Source: an uncultured Eubacteriales bacterium
GTDB taxonomy: Bacteria; Bacillota; Clostridia; Christensenellales; CAG-138
NCBI GenBank assembly: GCA_900544555.1
Contig: UQWD01000002.1
Span: forward strand, 63,471 to 127,470
Direction of reading: 5' to 3'
Length of the DNA stretch: 64,000 nucleotides
Shown here: in pieces, positions 1-64,000 of the stretch
How the letters are laid out: each line of letters starts with the position of its first letter
Position numbering within the stretch: position 1 is the stretch's first letter
Made by a program: the position numbers and the translations under genes
The notes under the pieces: model-generated
Seen by the model: the letters and a program-made list of their open reading frames with translations, nothing else
Databases searched by the model: none
What the model was told of the DNA's origin: nothing

Positions 1-374
1 CGGCAGACGCCGTAAACCTTGATTGATTCCACAGCCTTTTCAAGCAATTCGAGCGTTATGTTTGCCGGAAGACTGAACAATCCGATGAAAACCACGTTGG
101 CGCGCCTGCCCTGGGCAGCCATTTTCTCCAGCTCAGCCTTAGTAAATCCTCCGACGCCAACACTTACATAAAATTCCGGTTTCTTTTTTTCAACCGCGTT
201 TTTAGTATCCGCCGCGTGCGTATCCAGCTGCCTACGAACGGCGGACTTAATAAAATCCGACCTATTGGAATAAAAACCTTCGCTCACCAGTATGTCGATG
301 TACCCGATTTCTACAACGTTTAAATTCACTGTTATCTTTTCAACAGAGCTTTGGTCCGCCTTGCCATAATCCAT
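1..374 (-). CDS. Ribbon-helix-helix (CopG-like) domain protein, C-terminal end outside window
   Basis: Not in ORF track (no stop inside window). My translation from ATG at 374: MDYGKADQSSVEKITVNLNVVEIGYIDILVSEGFYSNRSDFIKSAVRRQLDTH... fits a strand-helix-helix DNA-binding pattern. AAGGAGG lies 7 nt upstream. The frame stays open to position 1. Confidence 0.55.
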   Translation of the reverse strand, partial: MDYGKADQSSVEKITVNLNVVEIGYIDILVSEGFYSNRSDFIKSAVRRQLDTHAADTKNAVEKKKPEFYVSVGVGGFTKAELEKMAAQGRRANVVFIGLFSLPANITLELLEKAVESIKVYGVC

Positions 375-48296: not shown

Positions 48297-48914
48297 CTAA
48301 ACGCTGATTTCATTTATGCGATGCGGATCTGCGTAGCGAAACGACGGCGCGTTGAACACCCCGTTTTCACATATCACCATATCCATGATTAAATCGTGCG
48401 GCTCCACAGGTATATCGTCCCTTATCATCTTCCCGCGGCACAGCATCGCCTTGATGCAATTTGTTTTGATTAAATATCTATCGTAAAACCCGCCCCCAAA
48501 GCCTATCCTTTCACCCTTGATCCCGCCAGCAAGGCAGGGGATGAGCGCCAAATCGATTTCCTCAGCGCGCAGTTCCGAATTCCCGGCGGGAGGCTCCAAT
48601 ATGCCGTAGGCGCCCGGCCTGAGCTCCCCGGCCGAACGGATTATTTTAGCCTGCATTTCACCCTTCCCGACACAGAGCGGAACGGCCACGGTTTTGCCTT
48701 CACATAGCGCGCTTTCAATTATGGGCATGGTATTGATTTCACGCGCCGTACCAACATAACAAAAGATACAGCGCGCGCGCCGGTAAGCAGGAAGATTAAA
48801 AACAGCCTCGCGTATCGCGGCGTCGGCCCAACGGCAATAATCCGCGTCCATCGCAGCGGCGATGCGAAGCGCTTCCCGGCGCACGGCTTTTTTCAGCATA
48901 CAAATCTCTTCCAT
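48297..48914 (-). CDS. 5-formyltetrahydrofolate cyclo-ligase
   Basis: About 200 aa. Blocks CIFCYVGTAREINT, GAYGILEP and GERIGFGGGFYDRYL typical of the MTHFS family. The start is ATG 48914 or 48899. Confidence 0.85.
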   Translation of the reverse strand: MEEICMLKKAVRREALRIAAAMDADYCRWADAAIREAVFNLPAYRRARCIFCYVGTAREINTMPIIESALCEGKTVAVPLCVGKGEMQAKIIRSAGELRPGAYGILEPPAGNSELRAEEIDLALIPCLAGGIKGERIGFGGGFYDRYLIKTNCIKAMLCRGKMIRDDIPVEPHDLIMDMVICENGVFNAPSFRYADPHRINEISV

Positions 48915-48952
48915 TATAATATCCTGCTTCCGCTATAATATCCTGCTTCCGC
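48915..48952. repeat. Perfect 19-bp tandem duplication (TATAATATCCTGCTTCCGC x2)
   Basis: Read directly: copy 1 at 48915-48933, copy 2 at 48934-48952, in the folD / cyclo-ligase intergenic spacer. Confidence 0.95.
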
Positions 48953-48962
48953 ACTTCCCAAC

Positions 48963-49829
48963 TTACCGCTCACTCATGATACCATTTAGGCGCTCGGCGG
49001 CCAGCGTAACGTTGTGAGCAAGCACCGAGGTTGTAACCGCCCCTACGCCGCCGGGGACCGGGGTAATCGCGCCGGCAACGGCGACCGCGCTTTCAAAATC
49101 CACGTCGCCGCTCAAGCTTCCGTCCGCGGCCACGTTGATGCCCACATCGATAACCGTCTGGCCCGGGCGAAGGTGCTCGGCGCTGACGACGCCGGCTTTT
49201 CCCGCCGCGGCTATGAGGATATCCGCCCCGCGGCACACGGCGGCGAGATCCCGAGTTTTGGTATGGCATACGGTAACGGTCGCGTTGCGCTTTAACAGCA
49301 TCATGGCGACCGGTTTCCCGATAACGGCGCTTCGGCCGATCACAACCGCTGACTTCCCGGCCGGATCAACCCCGTAATAATCCAGCAACTCCATACAAGC
49401 CTGGGCCGTACAGGGGGCAAACCCGCGTTCAACGCCGAGGAAAACGCCGGCCATCGAACCATGCGTCATTCCATCGACGTCCTTATCCGGGGAGAGCGCG
49501 CTCATCACCGCGTTCTCGTCAAAACCGCGGGGCAGCGGGCGGAAAAGCAGCGCGCCGTGTATGGAGGCGTCCTGATTCACTCGGTTGATCTGAGCCATCA
49601 GCTTCTCCTGCGAATCATCCTCCCTGAGCGTTACCGCCTCAGCTTCCACTCCGGTTTTCGCTAAGCGCCTCATCGCATTGCGCTCATAAGCCGCGTCGTC
49701 CGGCCTATCTCCAACGCGGATTATTAAAAGTTTCGGGGTTATTCCCCGTGCCCTTAGCGCATCCGCGCGCGCGGATGCGCGTTTGCTTACAACCGCCGCG
49801 ACCGGCGCGCCCCTTAAAATATCAGCCAT
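48963..49829 (-). CDS. folD: Bifunctional methylene-THF dehydrogenase / methenyl-THF cyclohydrolase
   Basis: 288 aa. GDRPDDAAYERN, VIGRSAVIGKPVAMMLL and ITPVPGGVGAVT blocks. Confidence 0.95.
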   Translation of the reverse strand: MADILRGAPVAAVVSKRASARADALRARGITPKLLIIRVGDRPDDAAYERNAMRRLAKTGVEAEAVTLREDDSQEKLMAQINRVNQDASIHGALLFRPLPRGFDENAVMSALSPDKDVDGMTHGSMAGVFLGVERGFAPCTAQACMELLDYYGVDPAGKSAVVIGRSAVIGKPVAMMLLKRNATVTVCHTKTRDLAAVCRGADILIAAAGKAGVVSAEHLRPGQTVIDVGINVAADGSLSGDVDFESAVAVAGAITPVPGGVGAVTTSVLAHNVTLAAERLNGIMSER

Positions 49830-49855
49830 TTTTCATCTCCACAGCACTGTTATAA

Positions 49856-51133
49856 TCATTCGGCGCCAAAATACCGCCTGATATCCCCGGACATATAAAG
49901 CGACCCGAGCGCGCACACGACCCCGTCCGGCCCCGCCTTGCGCACAGCGAGTTTAACGCCTTCCTCCGCCGAATCCGCGGCGACGGCGGGCGCTCCCGCC
50001 GCTTGTATCAGCCCTGCAAGCTCTTTTGCCGGCATTGCCCGGTAAAAATCAGGACGAACCGCAATGAATTCCGAAGCCAGCGGCAAAATCGGCGGCAACA
50101 TCCCTTTTATATCCTTATCCGCCATCACCCCGATAACGAAAGTCACGGGCTTTCCTGGGAAATAGCGCCGCAAGCTCTCCGCCGTTGCGTTAACGCCATG
50201 CGGGTTATGTCCGCCGTCCACAATCACAATCGGGCGGCGCCCGACCACCTCGAACCGCGCCGGCCAGAACGCGCGGGCAAGGCCGCGCTTAATCGCGCCC
50301 TCATCAATGTTCCAACCCTTTTCGACCAGCACCTCGGCCGTTTTTATGGCTACTGCCGCGTTTTTTAGCTGATAAGCGCCAATAAGAGGTATGCGCAGCC
50401 CAATATGGCTTCCATAGTCAAAAGTCTGCCCATCCAAATCGTACCTCGTCAGCCTAAGCGCGCTAAAATCCGGCTTGTGCAGCCTGCCCCCGTGCGTTTG
50501 CGCCGCGCTCTCGAAAACGGCTTCCGCATCGGTGTTCTCGCCGTATATCACCACATCCCCGCCCCGCTTGATAATACCGGCTTTAGCCTTTGCTATCTCA
50601 TTCATGCTGCCGCCCAGCTGCTTGGTATGGTCAAAGCCCATCGCCGTAATCACGGCGGCCTCCGGCGTTGATATAATATTCGTGGAATCCCGCTCCCCGC
50701 CGAGGCCAACCTCCAGTACTACGATATCGCACGCCTTAAGCTTATAGTACATAAAAGCGACGGCCGTTATCATTTCAAACTCCGTGGGCGGGTCTTCCAT
50801 CCCCTCGGCTATTGGCCGGAGCATGGTGGTTATACGAGCCAGCTCCTCGTCCGCAATCGGCTCGTTATTCAACTGTATCCGCTCGTTAAACCGGTTGACG
50901 AACGGGGATATGAATAGGCCCGTCCGGTATCCCGCCTCGCACAATACGCTTGAGAGCATGGCGCAGGTTGAGCCCTTTCCGTTCGTTCCGGCGACATGCA
51001 CAAACTTCAGTCCATCCTGAGGCTCGCCCGCCAGCCTGAGCAGCTCGCGGATACGCTCCAGGCCCGGCCTGCTGCCGCTCCAGGAAACCTTGTGGATATA
51101 TTGAAGCGTTTCTTCGTAATTCATATCACGCAC
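49856..51133 (-). CDS. folC: Folylpolyglutamate synthase / dihydrofolate synthase
   Basis: HVAGTNGKGST P-loop, Mur-ligase-like layout. The start is ambiguous (GTG 51133 or ATG 51124). Confidence 0.92.
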   Translation of the reverse strand: MRDMNYEETLQYIHKVSWSGSRPGLERIRELLRLAGEPQDGLKFVHVAGTNGKGSTCAMLSSVLCEAGYRTGLFISPFVNRFNERIQLNNEPIADEELARITTMLRPIAEGMEDPPTEFEMITAVAFMYYKLKACDIVVLEVGLGGERDSTNIISTPEAAVITAMGFDHTKQLGGSMNEIAKAKAGIIKRGGDVVIYGENTDAEAVFESAAQTHGGRLHKPDFSALRLTRYDLDGQTFDYGSHIGLRIPLIGAYQLKNAAVAIKTAEVLVEKGWNIDEGAIKRGLARAFWPARFEVVGRRPIVIVDGGHNPHGVNATAESLRRYFPGKPVTFVIGVMADKDIKGMLPPILPLASEFIAVRPDFYRAMPAKELAGLIQAAGAPAVAADSAEEGVKLAVRKAGPDGVVCALGSLYMSGDIRRYFGAE

Positions 51134-51658
51134 CTAGCCCGCCAGATATTTGGGCTTTATTCCAACACGTCTAAAAACAATAAACAGAACCGTAGCGTCC
51201 ACCGCGGCCATGCCAAGCGCCATTGGAGCGCGTATTATGAAAAGCTCCCAGAAAGCGCCGCCCCCGTTGATGACGGTGATGCAGAACGTCGTCCAGAACA
51301 TGTTAGAAACGATATAACACACAAGCGTCATAATACCTACGCGGGGCCAGCTGATTTTTTGGAGCAGCATTTTTTTAAAGAACCAGGGCATAACGCCCAT
51401 AAGAATCGGCGAAATAGTGAAGATGGGCATGTAAGCGCCTTGTATAGGGAAAAGCACCGTACCGAGAAAATCCGACGCGAACCCGATAACGGCCCCGGCA
51501 AGGGGGCCGAACCAAACGCCGGACAGCAATATGGGGATATTGCCTAACGTAAAGCGCAGGCTTGTGCCGATTGGAAGGACAAGCAAGCGGGTGAAGACAA
51601 TGCTCAGGGCGACGAACACGCCCATGAGCGCTAAAGAAGCGATATTCCGTTTATTCAT
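51134..51658 (-). CDS. folT: ECF transporter S component, folate-specific (FolT family)
   Basis: ORF 51134..51685. ATG 51658 is preferred (GGAGGAGGAAAAATG). About 6 TM segments. It lies directly behind a THF riboswitch. Confidence 0.8.
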   Translation of the reverse strand: MNKRNIASLALMGVFVALSIVFTRLLVLPIGTSLRFTLGNIPILLSGVWFGPLAGAVIGFASDFLGTVLFPIQGAYMPIFTISPILMGVMPWFFKKMLLQKISWPRVGIMTLVCYIVSNMFWTTFCITVINGGGAFWELFIIRAPMALGMAAVDATVLFIVFRRVGIKPKYLAG

Positions 51659-51825
51659 TTTTCCTCCTCCTCTCCCGTATACCACACTAAAGAGGAGGTT
51701 CCAAGACTCTCTTCAATGGGGTAGCGGATGCAGCGCCTTACCGCAACCCGCATCCTGTGCGGGTTTTCGTGCAAGGGCAACTTCCCATCCCCTGCCACTT
51801 AACGCGCGGCGCCTACTCTACCATG
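51659..51825 (-). promoter_or_regulatory. THF (tetrahydrofolate) riboswitch with SD-sequestering expression platform
   Basis: Minus-strand RNA: GGUAGAGUAGGCGCCGCGCGUUAAGUGGCAGGGGAUGGGAAGUUGCCCUUGCACGAAAACCCGCACAGGAUGCGGGUUGCGGUAAGGCGCUGCAUCCGCUACC. It matches the known THF aptamer block by block (AGAGUAG, GCGUUAAGUG, AUGGGA, ACGAA, GCGGU, UGCAUCCGCU). Downstream CCUCCUCU (51691-51698) can pair with the SD AGAGGAGG. Confidence 0.9.
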
Positions 51826-51860: not shown

Positions 51861-51895
51861 ATTATACGACGCTTTCCCCCCGCCGCACAAGCCGC
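51861..51895 (-). promoter_or_regulatory. Candidate promoter of the riboswitch-folT operon (TTGTGC-18-TATAAT)
   Basis: Minus-strand TATAAT at 51861-51866 overlaps the stop codon of the upstream gene. The -35 is weak. Confidence 0.4.
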
Positions 51896-52929
51896 TCAAG
51901 TATCGATTCAGAATATATTTTTATCCTGTCACCGACGCCCGGCAGCGCCATCGCCGCGCCGGGGTCGTTGGCCGTTTCCAGCATGCAGAACCGCGGCGGG
52001 AGGATAAACGTTTTGTTCAGGCACAGGCTGCCCAGTATCTGCCCGGCTACAATATCCCCGCCGCTGTACCCGGATACCACGACGCCGTAAAGGTAAGTAT
52101 CAAAGAACGTATGCTGGATAAGCAGCGACGTAAGCCTGTTGATGCACGCGGATATGTTCGCGCCCACTGCGTCGTTGTAATTGGGGCACAGTAGCATTAA
52201 GGCGTCGCATTCAAGCAGCGCGGGGTACACCTCCTGAACCACGACGCCGCCGTAGAAACAGTTCCCCTGTTCGGAAAAATGCGTGCAGGTTTTAAACGAG
52301 CAGCCCCGGCAATCGTAAACCGTACCGTTCTGAAGCGATATTTCCGTTATATCGCATTTCTTCTCCAATATGGAGCAGACCGCCGCGCCAAGCTGGAGCG
52401 TGTTGGATGTGGCGCGATTTGACGCGTGCAGGGTCAGCACCTTCGGGCGCGCATGAAGGATGGGTTGAAACCCGCTTACGCGCTCGGCCATCTCCCGCGC
52501 CGCGCGCCGGTAAGCACCCATTAAATCCGTTCCAAAGTTTGACGCTAGGGTTTTGAAGTTATAAAGCGAACCCGTACCCTCTACCAGCGGCTTGCCAGGG
52601 AAAAGGCACCCCGCCATGTTCGCGGCCAGAACCAGCTCCCGCGCGAGCGACTTGGTGTACAGCTCGCTCTCGCCGTCTACAATCACGCCGCCCACGCATC
52701 CTTCCAATGCGCCGGGATGACTGCGCAGCCACATAAGCGTTTTATAATATTCCGGCTCAACGCCCCATTTCCCGCATGATAGCGCGAACAGCAGGCGTTT
52801 ATCCTTAAGGCAGGCGAGCTCCCCGCGCCCCGCCGAAACCATTTCACAGCGTTCTCCGGCAAGGGCGTATTTAAGTACGCCCTCAAGCCGCTTATGCGTA
52901 CCCATTGAAATCACCGTGAAACCGTTCAT
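51862..52929 (-). CDS. Two-domain flavodoxin-fold protein; C-terminal NADPH-dependent FMN reductase / iron-sulfur flavoprotein-like domain
   Basis: 355 aa. The C-half has KVLTLHASNRATSNT, CRGCSFKTC and DALMLLCPNYNDAVGANISACINR, typical of the FMN-reductase/Isf family. ATGA overlap with the upstream gene. Confidence 0.75.
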   Translation of the reverse strand: MNGFTVISMGTHKRLEGVLKYALAGERCEMVSAGRGELACLKDKRLLFALSCGKWGVEPEYYKTLMWLRSHPGALEGCVGGVIVDGESELYTKSLARELVLAANMAGCLFPGKPLVEGTGSLYNFKTLASNFGTDLMGAYRRAAREMAERVSGFQPILHARPKVLTLHASNRATSNTLQLGAAVCSILEKKCDITEISLQNGTVYDCRGCSFKTCTHFSEQGNCFYGGVVVQEVYPALLECDALMLLCPNYNDAVGANISACINRLTSLLIQHTFFDTYLYGVVVSGYSGGDIVAGQILGSLCLNKTFILPPRFCMLETANDPGAAMALPGVGDRIKIYSESILERLVRRGESVV

Positions 52930-54179
52930 AATATGCTGCTCTCCTCAATGAGCCGCGCGTACGCGCAGCCGATTCTTTCTTGGAGCGCCGGGTTTAGGGG
53001 GAGCGCCTCCACTTCCAGCCCCATAGCCGATTCGCGGTTGCGGCAGCCCATATACGCGCCGCCAAGCGGAACCGCGCTGTCCTGCCACCTTCCGCTTAAC
53101 AGCCTTAAAATCCCTATGCACGCCGAGGAAACGCCCGGCGCGAGATACGGCTTAAACCCCGTTTCCCGAACGCGCAAGTTCGCCTCAACCGTGTATTTCG
53201 TCAACAAGTCCGACCGCGCTCCGTCATAGCCGTCCCCGGTATCGTTGGCGATTACAAGCCCGCCGCCATGCGGACCGTACGCCCGGCCGCGCGCGGCAAA
53301 GTCCGGGCATAACCCGCTCTTATCCCCCCAATATGCCGCCCGCGCGCTCATCACGCCGAGGCCGAACCCCCGAATCTGCTCAGGGCGTAGGCCGAGATAA
53401 TCCATATTCCCGTTCTCATCGCGGTTGCTGTATACAAATACGCACCGGCACAACAGGTCGACCGGGTCCGACACCTGAGCAAACAGACCTTTAAACCCCT
53501 TTTCCCTCGCCATTCGCGCATAGGGCGCGATGATTTCCATATTGGATTTAAGCTGAGCCATGCGAACATCGAGATCCCCGCCGCCCGGCTCGGGTACGCC
53601 GCGCGAGGCCGCGAACGCGAATACGTCGCAATCGAAAAGACAGTCCGTCTCTACAATCCTCACCTGCGGCACTCTTGCATTGGGTTCGAGAGGGAGCATC
53701 TGGTTGATCTCCTGCTCGTACCGCTCGGCAAGCGTTCTGTTCGGATCGTAGATCCCGATCTCGCTGATTAGGCCGCCCCCCAGCAGCCTGAGCCCCATGA
53801 GCATAGCCCCGCCGACGTCTCCCAGCCCGGCGAGGTTTATACGCGCCTGCGCTGGCCGCAAGGGCGGGGCGAGCAGATCCTCGTATCCGGGCCAGGCGGC
53901 GTTTACCGCGCGCGCACCGCCGTTTAAAATGATATCTTGAAGCTCGCGCGGCGCGCCGGACTCATACGCAGTATCCAGGCTGAGCGCGTGCGTATCCTCT
54001 GGCCCTAAGGCCTGCTTAAGCGTACGCGGGGAAAACGCCGCGCGCGCGTTGAGAGGATCCCGATTGAGCAGGAACACCAGCGGGGCAAAGGGCGCCGCTA
54101 CCCGCCGCGCGCCCGCCGGAGGCTCCGCCTCAACCGGGCAAACAGAGAGCTTCCCGTGCCTGTAAAACTCCAGCCTCAC
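52926..54179 (-). CDS. Lactate/malate dehydrogenase-family NAD-dependent oxidoreductase with about 110-aa N-terminal extension
   Basis: 417 aa. Rossmann INLAGLGDVGGAMLMG plus IGIYD. QVSDPVDLL (like VSNPVD). MSARAAY and YGPHGGG (like GEHGDS). The GTG start overlaps the upstream TGA (GTGA). Confidence 0.75.
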   Translation of the reverse strand: MRLEFYRHGKLSVCPVEAEPPAGARRVAAPFAPLVFLLNRDPLNARAAFSPRTLKQALGPEDTHALSLDTAYESGAPRELQDIILNGGARAVNAAWPGYEDLLAPPLRPAQARINLAGLGDVGGAMLMGLRLLGGGLISEIGIYDPNRTLAERYEQEINQMLPLEPNARVPQVRIVETDCLFDCDVFAFAASRGVPEPGGGDLDVRMAQLKSNMEIIAPYARMAREKGFKGLFAQVSDPVDLLCRCVFVYSNRDENGNMDYLGLRPEQIRGFGLGVMSARAAYWGDKSGLCPDFAARGRAYGPHGGGLVIANDTGDGYDGARSDLLTKYTVEANLRVRETGFKPYLAPGVSSACIGILRLLSGRWQDSAVPLGGAYMGCRNRESAMGLEVEALPLNPALQERIGCAYARLIEESSIL

Positions 54180-57100
54180 TCGATCACCGCCTTCATGCGC
54201 AAAAGCGCCTCCATATCATTTCTTATATAGCTTGACGCGGGCAGGCTGTAATCATACTGCATAGCCCCCCCCTTATCGGGGCGGCGGGGCCAAAGCAGCG
54301 CTTCGCCCAGGCGCCCCAGCGTCAGGCTTTGCTCAAACATCGCCTGGTGTTCCTGTTCAAGCGCCTGAAGAATGTCGTAAGCGTTCTCCAGAGCCGTATA
54401 CGAAAGCGCGAAAATGCTCCGCCTTTCCGCCTCACAAATAAACGGCGGTGCCGCGTACGGCAGAACCATGTTGACCGACGGCGGCAGGTATCCGCCCCGC
54501 CGCGCCCCCCTGTCCACGCTGTCACCGCCTATAAACGGGTAGAGCATGCTTTCGGTAAACCAGTGCCGCAGGTTGGGTATGAAGTATACGCATTGGGCGT
54601 CCCTGCCCTGCACGCGCATCAGATCCCTGCCTCTCCCCGAAAGGATACCGGCAAAAATCCTGCGTATTTCCACGCCCTCTTCCCGAAAGATGGGGTCGAG
54701 CGCTTCAATCCTGTACCCTTTATGGAGCAGATCGTCCACAAGCAGCACGGGCCGGCGGAATGATCGCAGCGTGCGCACCTGATTGGACAGCGGCGAATAC
54801 CCGGGGTATTCGGTTATGGAAAAGCTCTTTAGATCCGGCGCGTAGGTCTTTTCAGCATGGAGCGTCTTGGTCACCGTGTTGGGAATGACCGAATCCGATA
54901 ATATCCGTCCGTAAGGGACGCACATATTACCGGCCAGCCGCCGCCCGCCCGAGGCGCCGGGGGCTCCGTTAAAGCGGATGATCTCGCTGGTAAGCTCATG
55001 ATCAAGCATATCCGCGTCAAACGAAAGCGTGAGCGTCCCTGGATACAGCCCGGTCATCGCCTCTTCCAGCCGGCTTCTCGACCGTTCAATGGCCTCCGCT
55101 ACCTTTTTGGCGCTCCTGTGAGGCTCCTTAACGGCTTGAGCCACGTCTTCAATCAATACGATGGGGAAGCGCATATCGACGTACATCACCCCGTCCTCAC
55201 CTCCGGGAATATCCCGAAAGCCCTTGCGCTTAAAAAGTGCGCGCGCGGGATCCTCCGCGCCCTGCGCGCGGTATAGAGCATAGGTGTTGTCCTCGCCCAG
55301 CGCGTCGGCCAGCGCCTTATTGAGCAGCATCTGCTTGATCCGTTCCTCCCGGGCGTAGACCCCGTCAATGACCAGCACTCGCCCGGAGGTGTGCCCGCGG
55401 ATGTATTGCGCCGAATCCATGCTTCGCGTTTCATCGTACATGCCCGCGGCGTTGGTGCTGTGGAAGCATACCCCGCCAAGCGGGGACGGCTCGCCTTCAC
55501 GATAAAGGGCCACCGCCTGCACGCCCGGCCTGTTCAGGCGCGCGGCGGCCTCGCCGCCGCTGAGCCCCGAATCCAGCGCGAGCCGCGCAAACTCGCCTGT
55601 GAGATGCTCGTTTAACGAAACATGCCGTCGATACTCCAGCGTATCCAGGCGCAAAACGGTTTTATACTGGGGCGCGCGCAGGTACAGGCCGTTGATGTAC
55701 ACATACTCCTGCACCAGAGGATCCACGAGCATGGAAATATCCAGATCCTTATCTATATACTCGCGTATGCGCGATGAGCTAACGTCCTCCAGATAGACCG
55801 GCAGCGAAAGGCGTATTATCCTGCCCATAACCTTTTCCTTAGCGAGGCCCGTCTCCCCCTCATCCTCGCCGCCGCTTCGCGCGAATACAATGTGGCCGAA
55901 ATGATGTATGGAATCGGGCGTGGGAGCGGCCCGGTAGGCGGAAGCGTTTTCAATCACGTCGCTCCCCGTCACAATATATACTTCGCGGTTAGCAAACAGC
56001 TCCCTCAGCGCCTTTAAATCCTCGGGAGCGGCCAGATTTACAGGCCTGTCGTCCGGGAACAGAAAAACATCCGGCGCGTCCGCCACGCTCATGTTGACTA
56101 TTCCTCGCCGCACAAGCTTGGGCTGCGTCCGTTTGCTCCATGAAAATTCATCCACCGCAAGATAAACCTCCATACCCAGATTGCGTATTTCATCCACAAT
56201 ACCCCTGTGCCCCGTCGAAAACGGATCGAAGGTTCCGGGGAAAAACGCGGCGTCAGGCTGGGGAGCGAACTTTATCGGGCCAAAACGCGCGTTCGCGTCG
56301 GTTATAAAACGGTACAGATGATTGAGCATCGCGGCGGTATTAAAAAACATCAGCCTTCCACCGCTCTGCTCATGGATAAGCGTGAGGAGCTTCTTGTGAA
56401 TTTTCTTAAACAGCCGGAGCTTCTTCGCAAACCCCATATCCTCGCTTCCAAACAGCCCTCGCCCTATTACCTGCAGCGCCTCCTGCCGAACGCCTTCCGC
56501 ATAATGGGTCAGCCCCAAAAGCAGCAGCCCGGCGGCGCGCATGCGCCTGCTCTCAACCGTGCCGGCCGGTTCCCCGGCGTTTTGCGCATAGGTATCATAA
56601 TGCGCCAGCAGCACGCCGAGTGTATGGAGCGTCATGCACGCGGCGCGTTCATTGGCGGATTTGATATGCCGTTCAAAATCGTCGAGCACCTCGTCAAGCT
56701 CCTTATGCGGGAGGAAAAGCGCCAGCCGGCCAAGGCAGGGCGGTATGTACCGGGAAAACTCATAGCGGGCCGTTTCAAGACCCCTCGTAAGCTCAACGGC
56801 TATTTCGTTGCACTGATCGACCGAGAGCATCGGCGCAATGGTGATAAGCGCGTCGCCGGCATGCTCTCTCACCGTCAGGTGCTCGCTTACGCGTACGAGA
56901 TTGGACAGGTGCGTCGCCACATGGAAAGCCTGCGCGGCGTCGCTCCTCGTCAGCTCCGTAAGCCAATCGATATTCGTCACCTTCATTATCCAGGGCGTCG
57001 CGGATTTGAGGTTTTCAAGAAAGAGCTCAGACGGCTCCTGCTTCTCAAGCCGGCCGGAATACTTCTTAACTAGCTCCGTACCGCCTGCGAGCCGCAGCGC

Positions 57101-58996
57101 CTTGTTCAATAAATAGATAACCGTGATATCCGCCGTTTCGTCAATTGCAGCTGCGGCGCTCAGCGCCGCTTCGTTCCATGGCCCCTCGCGCCCGTCCATG
57201 ACCCTTATCATGAATCTGAGCGCGCACGACTGAAGCCTTCTCTCCCCGCTATCTAAAAGGCGGGCGCAATACCCTATGAGCATAGCGATTTCCTCATCGC
57301 TAAGCAGGCCAAGCTCAATGCCGAAAAGCGTATCGACCAGCGCGAAGCGATCCTCCAAAGCGGGGTTTTCTTCGCGAAAACGCGCAAGTAGCGGATCGAG
57401 ATAGACCCGCGCGCCGTCCCGAGCGCAATTAGCCAGTACGGCCTTGGCCACCACCTTTAACGAGCCAGTTACCCTTGAACGGTGTTTAGGTGAAATCTTG
57501 TGATCCGGGTGCAATATCAGTTCCAGGTATTCTTCAAACAGGGCCGCGCGTTCATTCAGGCTCTCCTCAAGGGCCGGGGGGATAGCGGAGGCCGGGGCGT
57601 GAGCTGGCAGCTCCTTACGGTACTGCGCTGCGCTGTTTGCCAGTATAGCGCCCATCAGCCTGCCCGCCTTGCGCCTGATATCCCCTTCCGGGTGCATCAA
57701 AAGCTCGTATAAAAAGCGGAGCGTCATAACTTTTTGGCGCCGGGTCATATAAGTGAAATACTCCTCGAATATATTCAGGTATGTGCGGATGTGGCTCCGG
57801 TTCCGCTCGCCCCTCGCGTGCTCAAGCAGATCCCCGAACGATTCTTCCGAGCTTATGGAGCGCATCAGCCTGAGGTTATGCTCCACAGTCAAGCGCTTAA
57901 GCGCCCTTACCGCGCCTTCGGGAGATAAAAGAGCGGGAGCCGCTTGAAACGCCGGCACGGGCGTTTCGTCCCACGGATCCGTATTCACGCCTTTGGAGAC
58001 AAGGTAATCCTCAAAATCCTTGAGCTTTAGGTAAACGCGCTCGTAACGATCCCGTTTTGTCTCATCCACGTTATCAAGCTTTCCGAGTATCACGTCATAG
58101 GATTCTGCAAGCGAAAAGATTCTCGTCCGCTCGAAACCGGTTTCGTCTCTGGCGCTTTTTACCCGGAAATCGGCGTAGATGAGCAGCAGCGACTCAACGG
58201 GAAGGTTTTCAAGCTCAAGATCCCAGGTGGAATGATTGGCCGAGATATGCGCAATATCCGGCGCCCCCTCCCTGCGCAGCCATTGATCCGTATAAAAATA
58301 ATGCAGGTAGGGTATGCGGCGCGTGTCCACGCCCCGGCAGCCGAATTTGCCGATATCATGCGCGGCCGCGGCCGCGCTTACAAGGGGCAGATCGACGGCT
58401 ATCCCCGCCATATTCGCCTGTTTCGCCGCATGCATCGCCATATGATGGACGCACGCCGTATGCGAAAGCGCGTCGAACGGGCGAAGCTCCCGGCTCAGGC
58501 GGAACATTTCCAGCACGTACAGCCTGTCCATAGCGTCAAGGAAACGTTCATACTGCTCAGTTACCCGGCTGTTTGTGCATTCCTCCGGCGTTAGAAGGGC
58601 CATATCCGTAAAGGGGTTAAACCCTCTCGCGGCCTTTTCCTCATTTAGCGCGCGGCGCAGGCAGCGCAAGGCGAAACAAAACGCGCGCTCATGCTCCTTG
58701 TCGCGCGGCGGCCTTCCCTCCTCAGGGAAGACGCCGTGAAGAAGCTCCCCGTAGATATATTCCGCCCAGCCCTCCTCCGGCTCGGGGCAGATTTCCGCCA
58801 TTACGGGGATGCAGGCCGCAAGCACCTTCATACAGGAAACCGGCTGCTCCAGCGCCGCCTCCATACCCACGCGGAACCCCAGCTCCTCGAGAATTGCTTT
58901 CATAACGCGCTTGGGCATATTTTCGTCCAAAGCGCATTGGGCGTAAAGCTCCTCCGCCAACGCGCGGTAAAAATCCTGAAAAGCTCTTTTGCGCAT
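54176..58996 (-). CDS. Giant multidomain protein: HD phosphohydrolase + helical repeats + NadD-like nucleotidyltransferase + GNAT-like + PRTase-like
   Basis: ORF 54176..59008. ATG 58996 is preferred (GGGAGG RBS). Motifs: HTACVHH...AAHDIGKFG...IYADF (HD). FPGTFDPFSTGH and VSSSRIREY (HxGH / ISSTxxR nucleotidyltransferase). ALFKRKGFRDI (GNAT-like). RPVLLVDDLLHKGYR (PRPP-loop-like). Confidence 0.8.
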   Translation of the reverse strand: MRKRAFQDFYRALAEELYAQCALDENMPKRVMKAILEELGFRVGMEAALEQPVSCMKVLAACIPVMAEICPEPEEGWAEYIYGELLHGVFPEEGRPPRDKEHERAFCFALRCLRRALNEEKAARGFNPFTDMALLTPEECTNSRVTEQYERFLDAMDRLYVLEMFRLSRELRPFDALSHTACVHHMAMHAAKQANMAGIAVDLPLVSAAAAAHDIGKFGCRGVDTRRIPYLHYFYTDQWLRREGAPDIAHISANHSTWDLELENLPVESLLLIYADFRVKSARDETGFERTRIFSLAESYDVILGKLDNVDETKRDRYERVYLKLKDFEDYLVSKGVNTDPWDETPVPAFQAAPALLSPEGAVRALKRLTVEHNLRLMRSISSEESFGDLLEHARGERNRSHIRTYLNIFEEYFTYMTRRQKVMTLRFLYELLMHPEGDIRRKAGRLMGAILANSAAQYRKELPAHAPASAIPPALEESLNERAALFEEYLELILHPDHKISPKHRSRVTGSLKVVAKAVLANCARDGARVYLDPLLARFREENPALEDRFALVDTLFGIELGLLSDEEIAMLIGYCARLLDSGERRLQSCALRFMIRVMDGREGPWNEAALSAAAAIDETADITVIYLLNKALRLAGGTELVKKYSGRLEKQEPSELFLENLKSATPWIMKVTNIDWLTELTRSDAAQAFHVATHLSNLVRVSEHLTVREHAGDALITIAPMLSVDQCNEIAVELTRGLETARYEFSRYIPPCLGRLALFLPHKELDEVLDDFERHIKSANERAACMTLHTLGVLLAHYDTYAQNAGEPAGTVESRRMRAAGLLLLGLTHYAEGVRQEALQVIGRGLFGSEDMGFAKKLRLFKKIHKKLLTLIHEQSGGRLMFFNTAAMLNHLYRFITDANARFGPIKFAPQPDAAFFPGTFDPFSTGHRGIVDEIRNLGMEVYLAVDEFSWSKRTQPKLVRRGIVNMSVADAPDVFLFPDDRPVNLAAPEDLKALRELFANREVYIVTGSDVIENASAYRAAPTPDSIHHFGHIVFARSGGEDEGETGLAKEKVMGRIIRLSLPVYLEDVSSSRIREYIDKDLDISMLVDPLVQEYVYINGLYLRAPQYKTVLRLDTLEYRRHVSLNEHLTGEFARLALDSGLSGGEAAARLNRPGVQAVALYREGEPSPLGGVCFHSTNAAGMYDETRSMDSAQYIRGHTSGRVLVIDGVYAREERIKQMLLNKALADALGEDNTYALYRAQGAEDPARALFKRKGFRDIPGGEDGVMYVDMRFPIVLIEDVAQAVKEPHRSAKKVAEAIERSRSRLEEAMTGLYPGTLTLSFDADMLDHELTSEIIRFNGAPGASGGRRLAGNMCVPYGRILSDSVIPNTVTKTLHAEKTYAPDLKSFSITEYPGYSPLSNQVRTLRSFRRPVLLVDDLLHKGYRIEALDPIFREEGVEIRRIFAGILSGRGRDLMRVQGRDAQCVYFIPNLRHWFTESMLYPFIGGDSVDRGARRGGYLPPSVNMVLPYAAPPFICEAERRSIFALSYTALENAYDILQALEQEHQAMFEQSLTLGRLGEALLWPRRPDKGGAMQYDYSLPASSYIRNDMEALLRMKAVIE

Positions 58997-59281
58997 ATAA
59001 CCTCCCAATAAATCCGTCTGGCTTTATTATACCGCGCGGCGGCGCTCCATGCCATCTAAAAGCGCTGTCAATACGTTTCTGGAACGCTGCAACTCGTGCT
59101 GAGCACATATTACATTATCAGCCTGGCTGGTTTGGCGTGCGTTTAGCATAAACTCCATAAACAGCCTGCTTTAATTGTTAAAGAGACGAAAATAATAGCA
59201 TCTTAAAAAAAATGATGCTATACTAAATTGAATAAATTGTAGATATAATGTGTCAATTATGTAAAGGGGGAATGATACTTA

Positions 59282-60166
59282 ATGGAGGTCAGAAAGCGCC
59301 GCTGGGGCGACCGCAGGGACGGGTACCGTCTCCGGCCGGGGGAGATAGACGGATTTCACACCTTTTTGCCGTACTTGCTCCTCAACAGAGCCGACTGCGA
59401 AGCATTTATCAGCGAGCAGATCGATCTAACAAACATCACGGCGTATCTGGAACGGAAAAACGCGGATAACCCGCAATACAAGTACACGTTTTTCCACGTA
59501 ATCGCCGCCGCGCTGGTTAAAACCATCGTGCACCGCCCGTTAATGAACCGCTTTATTCAAGGCAAACGTTTTTATCAACGCAATTATTTATCTTTAGCAT
59601 TTGTCGCCAAAAAGCAGTTCAAGGACGACGGCGCCGAAGGGCTTTTGTTTTTAAAGTTCGGCGAGGATACAACCATTGATTCGCTTCACGACCGGATCTG
59701 GAAAGAGGTCGGCGAGGTGCGGGGCGGTAAGGTGGATAACACCACCGGCGCCATGGATACTTTAGCCAAGCTTCCAAGGTGGCTGCTTCGCATTGTGATG
59801 TTTGCGCTTATGAAGCTGGACTTTTATGGAAAGATGCCATATTCGCTGTCCAAGGAGGACCCTTATTATTCCACCGTGTTTATGAGCAACCTTGGCTCCA
59901 TCAAGCTCAACGCGGGCTATCACCACCTGACAAATTGGGGAACATGCTCCCTTTTCGTCGTGATAGGCGAAAAGCGCCTCGCGCCCAAATACGATGAAAG
60001 CGGCCGGGTGGAAACGATGCGGCCGGTCCTGGATCTGGGCATCACGCTCGATGAGCGGCTAGCGGACGGTTATTATTATTCCAAAACGATTCATTTGCTC
60101 AAGCATCTGCTTGAAAACCCCGAGCTGCTTGAGCGGCCGGCGAAGGAGGCCGTTAATTATGAATAG
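59282..60166 (+). CDS. 2-oxoacid dehydrogenase E2-type acyltransferase catalytic-domain protein (stand-alone)
   Basis: 294 aa. VFMSNLGS and ITLDERLADGYYYSKTIHLLKHLLENPELL align with the E2 SNLG and DHRxxDG...LE.P..L blocks. Confidence 0.7.
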   Translation: MEVRKRRWGDRRDGYRLRPGEIDGFHTFLPYLLLNRADCEAFISEQIDLTNITAYLERKNADNPQYKYTFFHVIAAALVKTIVHRPLMNRFIQGKRFYQRNYLSLAFVAKKQFKDDGAEGLLFLKFGEDTTIDSLHDRIWKEVGEVRGGKVDNTTGAMDTLAKLPRWLLRIVMFALMKLDFYGKMPYSLSKEDPYYSTVFMSNLGSIKLNAGYHHLTNWGTCSLFVVIGEKRLAPKYDESGRVETMRPVLDLGITLDERLADGYYYSKTIHLLKHLLENPELLERPAKEAVNYE

Positions 60167-61880
60167 CATAAAAGCGCCGTGGCTCAACTATTACGGCGTT
60201 GTTAAACCAACCCTTGATTATCCTGAATGCGCTATGTGGCGGGTGGTGGAACGCGCGGCGAAGCTCTATCCCGATCTGCTTTCTTATGACTTTATGGGGA
60301 CGTCCTGCACCTATAAGAAGATGATGAAGGATATCCATCTTTGCGCCAGGGGCCTAAAGGCCATGGGCATTAAGGAAAACGACCGCGTTACGGTATGCAT
60401 GCCGAACTCCCCGCAGGCGGTCGCGTTCTTTTACGCTATCAACATGATGGGGGCCGTGGCCAATATGATCCACCCCCTGTCCAGCGAGAAGGAAATTGAA
60501 TTTTATCTGCGTGATTCCAAAAGCGTAGCCGCGCTCACGCTGGATCAGTTTTATTCCAAATTCGCCCGCATACGCAGGGAGGTCGACCTGCCCAAGCTGA
60601 TAATTACCAGCGTAAAGGATGCGCTTAACCCGGTGATGAAGCTGGGCTACGCGCTTACCGAGGGGCGCAAAATTGAGAAAATACCGGCGGACGCGGAAAT
60701 TGTTTCCTGGCAGAGCTTTTTAAAGGAGGCGGCCGATTACGGCGGCGAGTATATCGCGCCGCGCGCCGCTCTTGACCCGGCCGTTATCCTTTACAGCGGC
60801 GGCACAACCGGCACAACCAAGGGCATCCTACTGTCAAACCTCAACTTTAACGCGCTTGCCATGCAGATTGACGAGATGAGCAACTGCCTTGTTCCGGGGA
60901 AATCCATGCTCGCCATCATGCCCATGTTTCATGGGTTCGGGCTTGGCGTATGCATCCATTCCATGCTCGCGGGCGGGTGCAAATGCATACTCGTCCCCCG
61001 GTTCACGTCAAAATCCTACGCCCAGCTGTTAAAAAAGCGCAAACCAAACTATATCGCGGGCGTTCCGTCGCTTTATGAAACACTGCTCAGGAACCCGGAT
61101 ATGGACGGCGTGGATCTTTCCTGCCTAATGGGTGTGTTCTCGGGAGGGGACTCGCTTTCCGTCGAGCTCAAAAAGCGTTTCGATAAATTTCTCAAAGAGC
61201 ATAACGCGCGCATAGAGATACGCGAGGGCTACGGCACGACGGAATGCGTTACGGCAAGCTGCCTGACCCCGTACAATATGTCCCGTGAAGGCAGTATCGG
61301 CGTGCCGTTCCCGGACACGTACTATAAGATCGTCGCGGTGGGTACCGAAAATGAGGTTCCCTACGGCGTTGAAGGGGAAATCACGCTTTCCGGCCCGTCC
61401 GTAATGATAGAATATGTCAACCAGCCCGAGGAAACCGCGCAGGCTCTTCGCACGCACGCGGATGGACGCGTATGGCTGCACACGGGCGATCTGGGAACAA
61501 TGGATGAAGACGGCTTCATCTATTTCCGCCAGCGCATAAAACGCATGATAGTAACAAACGGGTATAACGTGTATCCTTCGCAGCTGGAGAATATTTTGGA
61601 CGCGCACGATTACGTGCATATGAGCTGCGTAATCGGAGTCCCCGATCCGGTAAAGATACAAAAGGTCAAGGCTTTTGTTATGCTCAAGCCCGGCATACCG
61701 GCGGACGGGCAGACCAGCAGGGAGCTTTTCGACCACTGCAAAAAACACATTGCGAAATACGCCATGCCGTACGATATTGAAATACGCGATCAACTTCCAA
61801 AAACGCTTGTCGGCAAGGTAGCGTTCCGGGAGCTTGAACAGGAGGAATTGGAGAAAACCTCGGCTTCCGGCGCAATGTAA
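60159..61880 (+). CDS. AMP-dependent acyl-CoA synthetase/ligase (ANL family)
   Basis: ORF 60111..61880. ATG 60159 is preferred (AAGGAGG RBS; overlaps the upstream stop as ATGAATAG). LYSGGTTGTTKG, REGYGTTE, HTGDLG and GKVAFREL blocks. Confidence 0.9.
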   Translation: MNSIKAPWLNYYGVVKPTLDYPECAMWRVVERAAKLYPDLLSYDFMGTSCTYKKMMKDIHLCARGLKAMGIKENDRVTVCMPNSPQAVAFFYAINMMGAVANMIHPLSSEKEIEFYLRDSKSVAALTLDQFYSKFARIRREVDLPKLIITSVKDALNPVMKLGYALTEGRKIEKIPADAEIVSWQSFLKEAADYGGEYIAPRAALDPAVILYSGGTTGTTKGILLSNLNFNALAMQIDEMSNCLVPGKSMLAIMPMFHGFGLGVCIHSMLAGGCKCILVPRFTSKSYAQLLKKRKPNYIAGVPSLYETLLRNPDMDGVDLSCLMGVFSGGDSLSVELKKRFDKFLKEHNARIEIREGYGTTECVTASCLTPYNMSREGSIGVPFPDTYYKIVAVGTENEVPYGVEGEITLSGPSVMIEYVNQPEETAQALRTHADGRVWLHTGDLGTMDEDGFIYFRQRIKRMIVTNGYNVYPSQLENILDAHDYVHMSCVIGVPDPVKIQKVKAFVMLKPGIPADGQTSRELFDHCKKHIAKYAMPYDIEIRDQLPKTLVGKVAFRELEQEELEKTSASGAM

Positions 61881-61891
61881 GGCTTATTCCG

Positions 61892-61935
61892 GGCCGTGGA
61901 AAAAACGTTTCCACGGCCTCGAGCTATTTTATCGC
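61892..61935 (+). terminator. Hairpin terminator after the ligase gene
   Basis: GGCCGTGGAAA / TTTCCACGGCC 11-bp stem. The T-tract (CTATTTTAT) is offset by 8 nt. Confidence 0.55.
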
Positions 61936-62018
61936 ATTTGGCACGCCCGTTTTGTGGCCTGGGATGACGTAGAGGCCGCGCGGTTCGTAGTTTTTTAAAG
62001 GGGGAGTTCGCGTATATC

Positions 62019-62564
62019 ATGATATTAAATACGGACAGGCTTACGTTAAGGCTTCTCGAGCAGACCGATTACGGCGCGCTTACAAAGATTTTGCAGGATT
62101 CCGAGGTCATGGCCGCCTACGAGCATGCGTTCAGCGACGGTGAGGTTCAAACGTGGCTGGACCGGCAGATAGCGCGTTATCAAGCCGACGGCGTTGGGCT
62201 GTGGGCTGTTTGCCTTATGCAAACGGGAGAGGTTATCGGTCAATGCGGGCTAACCATGCAGGATTGCTTCGGAAGGAAGGTGCTGGAGGTGGGTTATCTC
62301 TTTCAAAAGGCGTTTTGGCGGCGGGGATTTGCGACTGAGGCCGCCAGAGCGTGCAGGGATTATGCGTTCGAGCGTCTAAACGCAAGCGAAGTGTATTCCA
62401 TCATACGCGATACCAACAAAGCCTCAAGAAGCGTCGCGCTTCGCAACGGCATGTCCGTATGCGGCGAATTTGTCAAGCATTACTACGGCGTGGATATGCC
62501 CCATATCGTTTACCGCATTCTCCGCGGGGAGTGGGAAAGCATCCGCGGTACGCGAGATGCTTAA
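62019..62564 (+). CDS. GNAT acetyltransferase (RimJ/RimL-like)
   Basis: TDRLTLRLLEQTDYGAL, FWRRGFATEAARA, SRSVALRNGM. Confidence 0.85.
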   Translation: MILNTDRLTLRLLEQTDYGALTKILQDSEVMAAYEHAFSDGEVQTWLDRQIARYQADGVGLWAVCLMQTGEVIGQCGLTMQDCFGRKVLEVGYLFQKAFWRRGFATEAARACRDYAFERLNASEVYSIIRDTNKASRSVALRNGMSVCGEFVKHYYGVDMPHIVYRILRGEWESIRGTRDA

Positions 62565-62973: not shown

Positions 62974-64000
62974 TTACAGCTTTAACACACCAGCCATGTA
63001 TCCCAGGAAAGAGTCATAAGAGAGCGTCCACTGATAAACATCTTCCGCAATTTGTTTAACCTGCCATCTATTCAAATTTTCTCTGCGGATGGATACGGAG
63101 CATCTCTGCACTTCCCGCCAACTCCCATAGCCATGTCTAATCTGCTCTGCCAAAGCTGCATTCACAATCACCGGTATCGTATCGCTTTCAATTACATGAA
63201 ATTGGTCATTAACCGTTTGAAAGCTTAAATTCGTTTCAGCCTCCAACAGAGCCTGTATCTGTTTTGCTTCACTCTTACCTCTATGCAACTCATCACTGAT
63301 CGATTTTGTGCTCAGCTTAGGCGTGATTTCCATATTATCGCGCAGATACTCTTCGAGCAGGCCCGCGCTTATTTTTATTTCCGGATTGGAAGTGAGCATC
63401 TTATCATCCTGCATGCTGAAGCTCCACATCTCCGCATCTTTAGAAAGCCCGTTACGATTAACTCTTCCCGCTGTCTGTATCAGTGACAAAACGGAAGCCA
63501 GCTCTCTGAATCCATTACGGAACGAAAAATCCATGCCGGCTTCCGCACAGGATGTCGCCACCAAAACCCAGTTTGTATCCGTCGAATCCGCCAAACGTTT
63601 TTTTACCGCTTTAATTGTTTGCTCGCGATCCTCCGGCGTAAGCGCAGTTGAGAGATGCTCCACGCATACCTTACCATATTTTTTACGGATGTCATCGGCA
63701 ATTACCGCCGCATTTTGTACGGTATTCATGACTACAATTCGTGGTCCTGGTTTTTCCATGACCCAGTCTGTCAATTCCGCCCGGCTCAGTGAAAGTGAAT
63801 TCCAACGAAACCGGATTCTATTTTTCTCATAGCCAAGCAATGCGCTGCGCAAATTTTTGTTCACCATTTCCGGGATCTGCTTCACCTCAGTTCCAACCAA
63901 CTCCGGAATCCGCCAAAAACGAACCAGCGATCCTGAGGCCAAAATCCAGTAACAGCCCCACTCCTCTTCCAATACTTTCATCCAGTTCCACGCAAGCGGG
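62974..64000 (-). CDS. Cas3-like SF2 helicase, C-terminal half (N-terminus outside window)
   Basis: The frame is open to the window edge (…PLAWNW precedes the listed Met). IVVMNTVQNAAVIADDI, VLVATSCAEAGMDFSF and LIQTAGRVNRNG correspond to helicase motifs IV-VI in the Cas3 arrangement. Confidence 0.5.
   Translation of the reverse strand, partial: PLAWNWMKVLEEEWGCYWILASGSLVRFWRIPELVGTEVKQIPEMVNKNLRSALLGYEKNRIRFRWNSLSLSRAELTDWVMEKPGPRIVVMNTVQNAAVIADDIRKKYGKVCVEHLSTALTPEDREQTIKAVKKRLADSTDTNWVLVATSCAEAGMDFSFRNGFRELASVLSLIQTAGRVNRNGLSKDAEMWSFSMQDDKMLTSNPEIKISAGLLEEYLRDNMEITPKLSTKSISDELHRGKSEAKQIQALLEAETNLSFQTVNDQFHVIESDTIPVIVNAALAEQIRHGYGSWREVQRCSVSIRRENLNRWQVKQIAEDVYQWTLSYDSFLGYMAGVLKL

Follow-up and report, generated by a model that had tools for sequence, protein, structure and literature searches.

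In the nicotinamide adenine dinucleotide (NAD) salvage enzymes NadV/NadM-Nudix and NadR, a phosphoribosyltransferase (PRTase) acts first and an NMNAT second, and a hydrolase or kinase is attached. GlnD, GlnE, and RelA-SpoT are large proteins in which a transferase, an HD (or reverse-reaction) domain, and sensor domains are joined. In fusions of NadD with YqeK, the HD domain hydrolyzes the dinucleotide products of NadD; as a diphosphatase, the HD domain of YqeK acts on 8-oxo-GTP and on dinucleotides (PMC9426524). Here, we describe three adjacent genes, all on the minus strand, in a 64-kb window (the whole stretch of DNA that we analyzed, from contig UQWD01000002.1 of an uncultured Eubacteriales bacterium). 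The first encodes a giant multidomain protein, gene 2 encodes a protein related to lactate and malate dehydrogenases (LDH/MDH), and gene 3 encodes a flavoprotein-like partner (Table 1). We refer to them as the triad. The triad is a real and widespread functional unit whose parts come from known superfamilies, and no system described so far corresponds to it in its combination or its chemistry: none of the Pfam or NCBIfam equivalog models explains it, full-text literature searches returned no paper on the protein family or the operon, and a D. vulgaris fitness paper held nothing for DVU1551.

The triad is one translationally coupled, conserved operon. An earlier note on this DNA had claimed that the three genes overlap by 4 nucleotides (nt) each, and reading both junctions bears this out: ATC GAG TGA at the end of the giant gene overlaps GTG AGG of gene 2 (GTGA at 54176-54179), and TTA TGA at the end of gene 2 overlaps ATG AAC of gene 3 (ATGA at 52926-52929). 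Gene calls on two independent metagenome contigs give products of 1,606, 417, and 355 amino acids (aa) with identical 4-nt overlaps, and in many lineages the genes overlap or have only short gaps between them. No terminator-like sites were found between the triad genes or beyond gene 3.

We compared the linkage of the three genes across genomes using each of them as an anchor. Starting from the C-terminal part of the giant, 80 loci were fetched of at least 576 relatives, and 65 of these had enough flanking DNA. All three genes were kept in 61 of the 65, with the same order and strand in every case (61/61), and the triad proteins at giant-anchored loci share 37 to 57% identity with those of the window. 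When gene 3 served as the anchor, the full triad was present, with order and strand kept, at 67 of the 73 loci with enough flanking DNA; five others carried only the gene 2-gene 3 pair, and one carried gene 3 alone. Anchoring on gene 2 recovered the giant upstream at 4 of 4 loci and gene 3 downstream on the 3 of 3 contigs that reached far enough. Independent occurrence of the genes in other genomes, which the earlier note had named as the outcome that would speak against a unit, is thus not what these counts reveal. Clustering of the flanking open reading frames (ORFs) of 86 loci returned the triad's own families as the sole recurrent ones (in 86, 68, and 63 loci); the next family occurred at 18 of the 86 and resembles spurious antisense ORFs, and all others were found at 10 loci or fewer, and we rejected a wider conserved gene cluster.

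An exhaustive search with the C-terminal 492 residues of the giant yielded 403 clusters at 50% identity, almost all of them full length. The hosts include Oscillospiraceae, Christensenellaceae, Anaerovoracaceae, Anaerotignum, Tyzzerella, Tissierellales, and relatives, together with Clostridium aminobutyricum and Clostridium sp. ASF356, and every host named in the locus records belongs to the Clostridia, which are strict anaerobes. Complete genomes with a triad include Anoxybacterium hadale CP042469, Clostridium sp. ASF356 CP097810, and Christensenellaceae OY762936. The chromosome OY762290.1, a metagenome-assembled genome (MAG) of a Christensenellaceae bacterium, carries two complete triads (L094 and L122) with 83 to 91% aa identity between copies, reflecting either a duplication of the whole unit or an assembled strain mixture. 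Given that adjacency is kept in hundreds of Clostridia species, the three proteins probably work together.

We mapped the domains of the giant with an alignment of 26 sequences, scoring the share of invariant columns in each domain. The protein has six parts: an N-terminal region, an HD domain, HEAT-like repeats, a NadD/NMNAT-like transferase, a GNAT fold, and a PRTase-like domain. More than 7,400 homologs reach E <= 0.001, with full-length proteins making up almost all of the best 120. Invariant columns account for 25, 22, and 21% of the HD domain, the transferase, and the PRTase core, respectively, compared to 2 to 8% elsewhere. The giant therefore has three candidate active sites under strong constraint, and its N-terminal, HEAT, and GNAT parts are weakly constrained and probably structural or regulatory. 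The N-terminal residues 1 to 160 had zero matches in a family search and are presumed, as an assumption on our part, to be helical. The HEAT assignment is based on weak HEAT matches of the window protein and its homologs, and on matches of the family profile to designed-repeat and CAND proteins.

Within the HD domain, the metal-ligand set H179, H213-D214, H232, H255, and D276 is invariant across the 26 sequences and includes two His residues beyond the H...HD...D pattern. PF01966 is precomputed for several giant homologs, one of which is named "HD domain-containing protein", and a PDB sequence search with the HD region of the giant found no relatives. The transferase scores above the Pfam cutoff for CTP_transf_like (26 bits versus 21, residues 918 to 1079), and its PDB matches are NMNAT, NadD, and PPAT. 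Its alignment motifs are FDPFSxGH, DEFSWSK, and SSTRIR, with H930, S1073, S1074, I1077, and R1078 invariant, and it carries both the (H/T)xGH and the ISSTxxR ATP-binding motifs of NadD/NMNAT. The GNAT and PRTase assignments come from an AlphaFold2 (AF2) model of residues 1115 to 1606 (pLDDT 84, pTM 0.86), a C-terminal part that has no relatives by PDB sequence search. Foldseek matched the first fold to GCN5, PCAF, and Naa60 (E 2e-6 to 1e-5) and the second to UPRT (6wn8) and XPRT (1y0b), with E of about 1e-5 and a TM-score of about 0.45 to 0.5 on the target. The Pfam model Pribosyltran matched one homolog alone (P0458), weakly and over the phosphoribosyl pyrophosphate (PRPP) loop (E 0.0011, 18.7 bits versus a cutoff of 26.3). 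A PRPP loop runs from four hydrophobic residues through two acidic ones and xx to T/S-G-x-T; in the giant family VLLVDD is conserved, and H-K/N-G-Y-R stands invariant at the end that would bind phosphate.

The giant also exists in a short form of 1,065 to 1,270 aa that lacks the HD part and still has the LDH-like and FMN_red genes next to it. Two examples, L086 (8001-13855, 1,266 aa) and L087 (8001-13124, 1,075 aa), retain the HEAT, transferase, and PRTase parts.

Like the NadD-YqeK fusions of Firmicutes and Mycoplasma, the giant unites a NadD-like transferase of the HxGH class with an HD phosphohydrolase on a single polypeptide. It differs from them in its order, with the HD domain preceding the transferase and a linker and HEAT-like repeats, together about 570 residues, separating the two. 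It also adds GNAT and PRTase folds, misses the NadD equivalog cutoffs, has an HD region that does not match the YqeK models, and has obligatory LDH-like and flavoprotein partners. Compared to NadV/NadM-Nudix and NadR, the giant would likewise have phosphoribosyl transfer, adenylyl transfer, and pyrophosphate hydrolysis available, although its PRTase is of type I (UPRT/XPRT-like) and not of the type II NAPRT/NAMPT fold, its hydrolase is HD and not Nudix, and all parts are fused in a single protein of 1,606 aa. It shares with GlnD, GlnE, and RelA-SpoT the union of a transferase, an HD (or reverse-reaction) domain, and sensor domains in one large protein, whereas its transferase is of the HxGH class and not of the Pol-beta or RelA type, and it has no ACT or PII partners.

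Gene 2 encodes a protein that, judged from sequence, is a distinct family of the LDH superfamily, far from ordinary LDH/MDH. It reaches only 21 of the 27 bits required by the Pfam model Ldh_1_N, Ldh_1_C is unmatched, and the LDH equivalogs are further out of reach (TIGR01771, 25.8 bits versus 303.55; NF000824, 24 versus 339). The best PDB LDH match has an E of 2.7e-4 by sequence and about 1e-5 by family profile, and covers the NAD domain only. The earlier note had listed a set of LDH/MDH motifs in this protein, all of which are present and conserved across a family alignment of 23 sequences: GLGDVGG, from G118, is invariant, and IGIYD, SDPVD, MSARAAY, and YGPHGGG are kept. D145, at the end of beta-2, where it indicates NAD preference, is at least 90% conserved, and R206, R280, and H304 are invariant. 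R206 corresponds to LDH Arg109 in phmmer alignments to PDB LDHs, and we take R280 and H304 to be the equivalents of Arg171 and His195 from motif matches to the LDH sequence. M277 (in GLGVM-x-AR) is a Met in 23 of 23 sequences; by motif, we align it with LDH Asp168, the partner of His195.

Gene 2 resembles the L-LDH/MDH proteins (Ldh_1_N/Ldh_1_C) in its Rossmann GxGxxG, its beta-2 Asp, its Arg109, Arg171, and His195 equivalents, and its xDPVD, and departs from them in the invariant Met at Asp168, the change from NPVD to SDPVD, the sub-cutoff scores, and, in most members, an extension of about 110 aa. On the family scores and the Met at the Asp168 position we rejected an ordinary LDH/MDH, so this further refuting outcome named in the earlier note did not hold either. 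The N-terminal extension, which the earlier note had called unique, is real and occurs in most homologs, being kept in the majority class of 395 to 430 aa (98% query coverage in the homolog search, and conserved in the family alignment). It is lineage-variable, however: a smaller class with lengths near 330 aa (e.g., Anoxybacterium hadale) lacks it, as do the LDH-like proteins encoded beside the short giants, which have 349 (L086) and 311 (L087) aa.

The C-terminal half of the gene 3 product matches the flavin mononucleotide (FMN) reductase family FMN_red (PF03358) over residues 162 to 320, with 45.3 bits against a cutoff of 24. Its FMN loops are conserved (HAS-xx-ATSNT and PNYND), and C207, C210, C215, and C224, together with H217, are invariant among 55 locus-derived and 24 database homologs. 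The FMN-reductase and iron-sulfur flavoprotein (Isf) motifs described earlier are thus confirmed as conserved, with four invariant Cys residues. The Cys motif of Isf is CX2CX2CX4-7C. The motif of gene 3 resembles the Isf style and is a candidate for cluster binding, which we regard as putative. Gene 3 and the Isf/NADPH-dependent FMN reductases (PF03358) share the FMN phosphate loop, PNYND, and a compact four-Cys motif, while gene 3 differs in its Cys spacing (Cx2Cx4Cx8C) and in the 155-aa alpha/beta domain added at its N terminus. The extra domain and the Cys cluster led us to reject gene 3 as an ordinary WrbA.

The earlier note had also seen two flavodoxin-like halves in gene 3. The AF2 model (pLDDT 84.6) does contain two alpha/beta domains, but the best Foldseek matches are single-domain FMN reductases, NQO1, and azoreductases (about 190 to 240 aligned columns). 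The N-terminal domain has a (beta-alpha)5 pattern and its own conserved patch (ELYTK, FPGKPLVE), and it had zero matches in family libraries; the C-terminal domain has no PDB sequence relatives. A profile-profile comparison of the two halves (hhalign) found no homology between them (probability 0.2%), and we rejected an internal duplication. A "double flavodoxin" architecture is plausible from the model but not established. Overall, the domain calls of the earlier note hold for the NMNAT-like transferase, the PRTase-like domain (by AF2 and Foldseek), the LDH-like enzyme, and the FMN-reductase/Isf-like protein, and the redox-coupled pathway of nucleotide or cofactor modification that it proposed can reasonably be inferred from the domain content.

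What might such a system do? The three constrained sites of the giant suggest phosphoribosyl transfer, adenylyl transfer, and phosphoanhydride hydrolysis, which is the reaction set of NAD salvage carried on non-orthologous folds. With somewhat less than even confidence, we tentatively favor a dedicated enzyme system that joins nucleotide to redox chemistry, in which PRTase, adenylyltransferase, and HD-editing activities would act on an NAD-like dinucleotide and be served by two redox partners. We favor this build-and-edit machine on the basis of the three sites, the precedent of NadD-YqeK, the residues of gene 2, and the module encoded by gene 3. The PRTase-like domain would join PRPP to a base or acid, yielding a ribotide, and the NMNAT-like domain would adenylylate the ribotide to a dinucleotide, either NAD-like or an analogue. 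The HD domain could then trim or edit the product as a diphosphatase, as YqeK does with NadD, and the HEAT region might provide a scaffold for the other two proteins. The conserved residues of the LDH-like enzyme are predicted to hold a 2-oxo or 2-hydroxy carboxylate beside NAD(H), and the enzyme would catalyze a 2-hydroxy/2-oxo-acid step linked to NAD(H). The gene 3 product resembles an electron module of the ferredoxin type with Fe-S and FMN, which could bring low-potential electrons in or out through [4Fe-4S] and FMN. It is also possible, with our judgment leaning against it, that the triad makes or salvages a redox cofactor or metabolite of nucleotide type, so far undescribed, in anaerobic Clostridia. 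In that case the type I PRTase and the NMNAT-like enzyme would build a non-canonical dinucleotide from some base or acid, the binuclear HD site would edit it, and the LDH-like enzyme and Fe-S flavoprotein would tailor or use it, all on the HEAT scaffold.

Several observations weigh against the build-and-edit machine. The Pfam HD model matches the window giant below its cutoff (E 0.0045, 17.7 bits versus 22), and the HD part is dispensable in the short variants. NadD NCBIfam models on residues 917 to 1106 reach at best 39.9 bits against a cutoff of 150, the cutoffs ranging from 150 to 315. The nicotinic acid mononucleotide (NaMN)-binding motif of NadD is of the PPHK type, and this position reads SWSK in the giant. 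The GNAT fold looks non-catalytic, its acyl-CoA pyrophosphate loop (Q/R-x-x-G-x-G/A) not being seen by eye in the alignment consensus. Catalysis by the PRTase-like domain is not assured, because its PRPP loop has HKGYR in place of the canonical T-G-x-T. With this loop, a changed NadD motif, and a degenerate GNAT fold, it would be unsafe to assume any activity. The linkage also has exceptions: among the giant-anchored loci, gene 3 is not adjacent in three and both partner genes are missing in one, and five loci (L128, L136, L144, L156, and L161) carry the gene 2-gene 3 pair without an adjacent giant. Finally, the DNA ahead of the giant gene showed no riboswitch or leader, either in the window or at 16 other loci, and 67 upstream regions contained no shared DNA motif or Rex box, so regulation gives no hint of a ligand.

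A plainer role in keeping the NAD pool is unlikely in our view. The giant would then be an NaMN/NMN adenylyltransferase with a YqeK-like HD proofreader, its PRTase- and GNAT-like domains would be regulatory ligand sensors, and genes 2 and 3 would encode NADH- and NAD(P)H-consuming oxidoreductases that balance pyridine-nucleotide redox, with no new compound involved. The best family matches of the transferase are indeed NadD models, and an association of HD with NadD is documented (PMC9426524). However, the equivalog score of 40 bits lies far below the cutoffs and the NaMN-binding motif is altered; an essential NadD would also be expected to be universal, whereas this family is restricted to part of the Clostridia (403 clusters). 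The NAD-type Rossmann site of gene 2 and the membership of gene 3 in the NADPH-dependent FMN reductase family would suit such a role, while the PRTase core is constrained like the transferase, which fits catalysis more than sensing. pncB, encoding nicotinate phosphoribosyltransferase, lies on the same strand about 0.5 to 2 kb upstream of the giant at eight loci (L006-L009, L011, L012, L017, and L023), with a small lipoprotein gene between pncB and the giant in six of them and lgt before pncB in six. This proximity is a weak functional hint toward pyridine nucleotides, since all eight loci come from one clade.

By analogy with GlnD, GlnE, and RelA-SpoT, the giant could be a regulatory switch whose transferase nucleotidylylates a protein (either partner product or a different one docked on the HEAT scaffold) and whose HD domain reverses this, with the GNAT- and PRTase-like domains sensing acyl-CoA, PRPP, or (p)ppGpp. 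Such a switch seems distinctly unlikely to us. It would account for a transferase and HD domain in one polypeptide, the long repeat scaffold, two degenerate-looking ligand-binding folds, and the strict co-occurrence of partners, and Foldseek did match XPRT with bound ppGpp (6w1i), a sign that PRTase folds can bind alarmones. Yet the HxGH-class (NMNAT/PPAT-type) transferases are known to use small phosphate esters, and the protein-modifying GlnD and GlnE have a Pol-beta fold; moreover, short giants have no HD "eraser", and the PRTase core is highly constrained. A module against oxidative or redox stress is very improbable. It would pair a gene 3 product like the methanogen Isf proteins that reduce O2 or H2O2 with a gene 2 enzyme supplying or recycling reducing equivalents and a giant that sanitizes damaged nucleotides by HD diphosphatase action and resynthesis. 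The Isf-like Cys motif and FMN loops, the strictly anaerobic hosts, and the action of the YqeK HD domain on 8-oxo-GTP and dinucleotides (PMC9426524) are consistent with it, but peroxidase, rubrerythrin, or other stress genes are not co-conserved in the flanking-ORF clustering, the upstream regions lack a common regulatory motif, and such a module would not account for the conservation of the PRTase and transferase sites. The database names "lactate dehydrogenase" and "multimeric flavodoxin WrbA" would fit an ordinary LDH and an ordinary WrbA-type flavodoxin lying by chance behind a large hypothetical gene, an idea with next to no probability. The linkage counts effectively refute it, with synteny in more than 90% of loci at identities of about 40 to 57% while all other neighbors change, as do the gene 2 score of 25.8 bits against an LDH cutoff of 303, its Asp168-to-Met change, and the extra domain and Cys cluster of gene 3.

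The genes flanking the triad in the window are not its members. As the earlier note had described, a divergent acyl-activation pair begins upstream, after 285 nt of intergenic DNA, and a tetrahydrofolate (THF) riboswitch operon lies directly downstream. Neither is conserved beside the triad at 85 other loci, so we consider them local coincidences and reject a functional tie of the triad to the acyltransferase, AMP-binding, and GNAT genes or to the folate operon. A candidate -10 that the note placed on the gene 3 stop codon is partly upheld: TATAAT at 51861-51866 does overlap the stop, but its -35 matches at only 3 of 6 positions. Read-through from the triad into the folate operon is possible, since no terminator-like site separates them, and the 34 nt from the THF aptamer to the folT start suggest translational control.

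Other features of the loci were recorded as side observations. GC content between 52000 and 56000, within the triad, is 0.59 to 0.60, the highest in the window (0.44 to 0.56 elsewhere), and no mobile-element genes were seen adjoining the triad. The recurrent neighbors pncB, lgt, the lipoprotein gene, glutamate dehydrogenase, DUF3810, and PGI are restricted to small groups of loci. L008, L012, and L017 have the operon without gene 3; a convergent DUF3810 gene follows gene 2 in L008, and a convergent ORF of similar size takes that place in the other two. Loci L136, L144, L156, and L161 belong to Oscillibacter or Dysosmobacter MAGs. A 1,060-aa ORF before the L128 pair is unrelated to the giant, so we rejected it as a cryptic copy, and is probably carB. 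L170, from another Feifaniaceae MAG, has gene 3 directly after a truncated upstream gene. In L015, a Tissierellales MAG, a cobalamin riboswitch (12324-12506, plus strand) lies just past gene 3, heading the next operon outside the triad. Near the end of the window, a 335-aa ORF (62974-63981, minus strand) has matches to the C-terminal domain of Cas3 and to helicase C, and may mark the border of a CRISPR-Cas locus that extends toward the window end. No triad protein matched the PADLOC defense models, and we rejected an anti-phage defense system on that basis.

Table 1. Features of the triad and its surroundings, in window coordinates
Feature	Residues	Position	Strand	Description
Giant gene		54176-58996	-	ORF to 59008; start most likely ATG 58996, preceded by GGGAGG; 1,606 aa, multidomain
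Giant, N-terminal region	1-160	58517-58996	-	poorly conserved; 2% invariant columns
Giant, HD-type phosphohydrolase domain	161-335	57992-58516	-	25% invariant columns
Giant, HEAT/ARM-like helical repeats	391-905	56282-57826	-	6-8% invariant columns
Giant, NadD/NMNAT-like (HxGH-class) nucleotidyltransferase	906-1112	55661-56281	-	FFPGTFDPFSTGH, DEFSWSK, SSSRIR; 22% invariant columns
Giant, GNAT-fold domain	1113-1290	55127-55660	-	2% invariant columns (4/178)
Giant, type I PRTase-like domain	1291-1606	54179-55126	-	RPVLLVDDLLHKGYR; helical N- and C-terminal additions; core 21% invariant
Gene 2		52926-54179	-	417 aa; divergent LDH/MDH-superfamily NAD-dependent dehydrogenase
Gene 2, N-terminal extension	1-110	53850-54179	-	lineage-variable; PLVFLxxRDPLxxR, GAxVxN
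Gene 3		51862-52929	-	355 aa; N-terminal alpha/beta domain and C-terminal FMN-reductase/Isf-like domain
Gene 3, N-terminal alpha/beta domain	1-155	52465-52929	-	AF2 model
Gene 3, C-terminal FMN-reductase/Isf-like domain	162-347		-	Pfam FMN_red, AF2, Foldseek
Gene 3, C207-x2-C210-x4-C215-x8-C224	207-224	52258-52311	-	candidate [4Fe-4S] site, near FMN-domain start
Promoter-like site ATGGCA-18-TATAAT		59026-59055	-	consensus match only, 10/12; about 30 nt before the giant start codon
THF riboswitch		51720-51822	-	72 bits; begins 40 nt past the gene 3 stop
Folate operon		48297-51685	-	folT-like ECF S-component, folC, folD, 5-formyl-THF cyclo-ligase
Divergent genes		59282-62564	+	2-oxoacid-dehydrogenase-type acyltransferase fragment (294 aa), AMP-binding enzyme (589 aa), GNAT (181 aa)

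Several hundred species of Clostridia carry the triad, including the common gut genera Oscillibacter, Dysosmobacter, Lawsonibacter, Christensenella, Anaerotignum, and Anaerovorax, and the labels that its proteins bear in databases ("hypothetical", "NadD", "lactate dehydrogenase", and "WrbA") are all likely wrong or incomplete. With about 2,400 conserved residues and at least five candidate active sites, the triad is a defined target for function discovery, and its fixed three-gene unit, mutable catalytic motifs, and natural variants (with or without the HD part, with or without the gene 2 extension) are assets for that work. Should the triad turn out to make or edit an NAD-like compound, it would represent a new branch of pyridine-nucleotide metabolism in anaerobes; if it is instead a nucleotidylylation switch, it would represent a new class of regulator built on an HxGH transferase.

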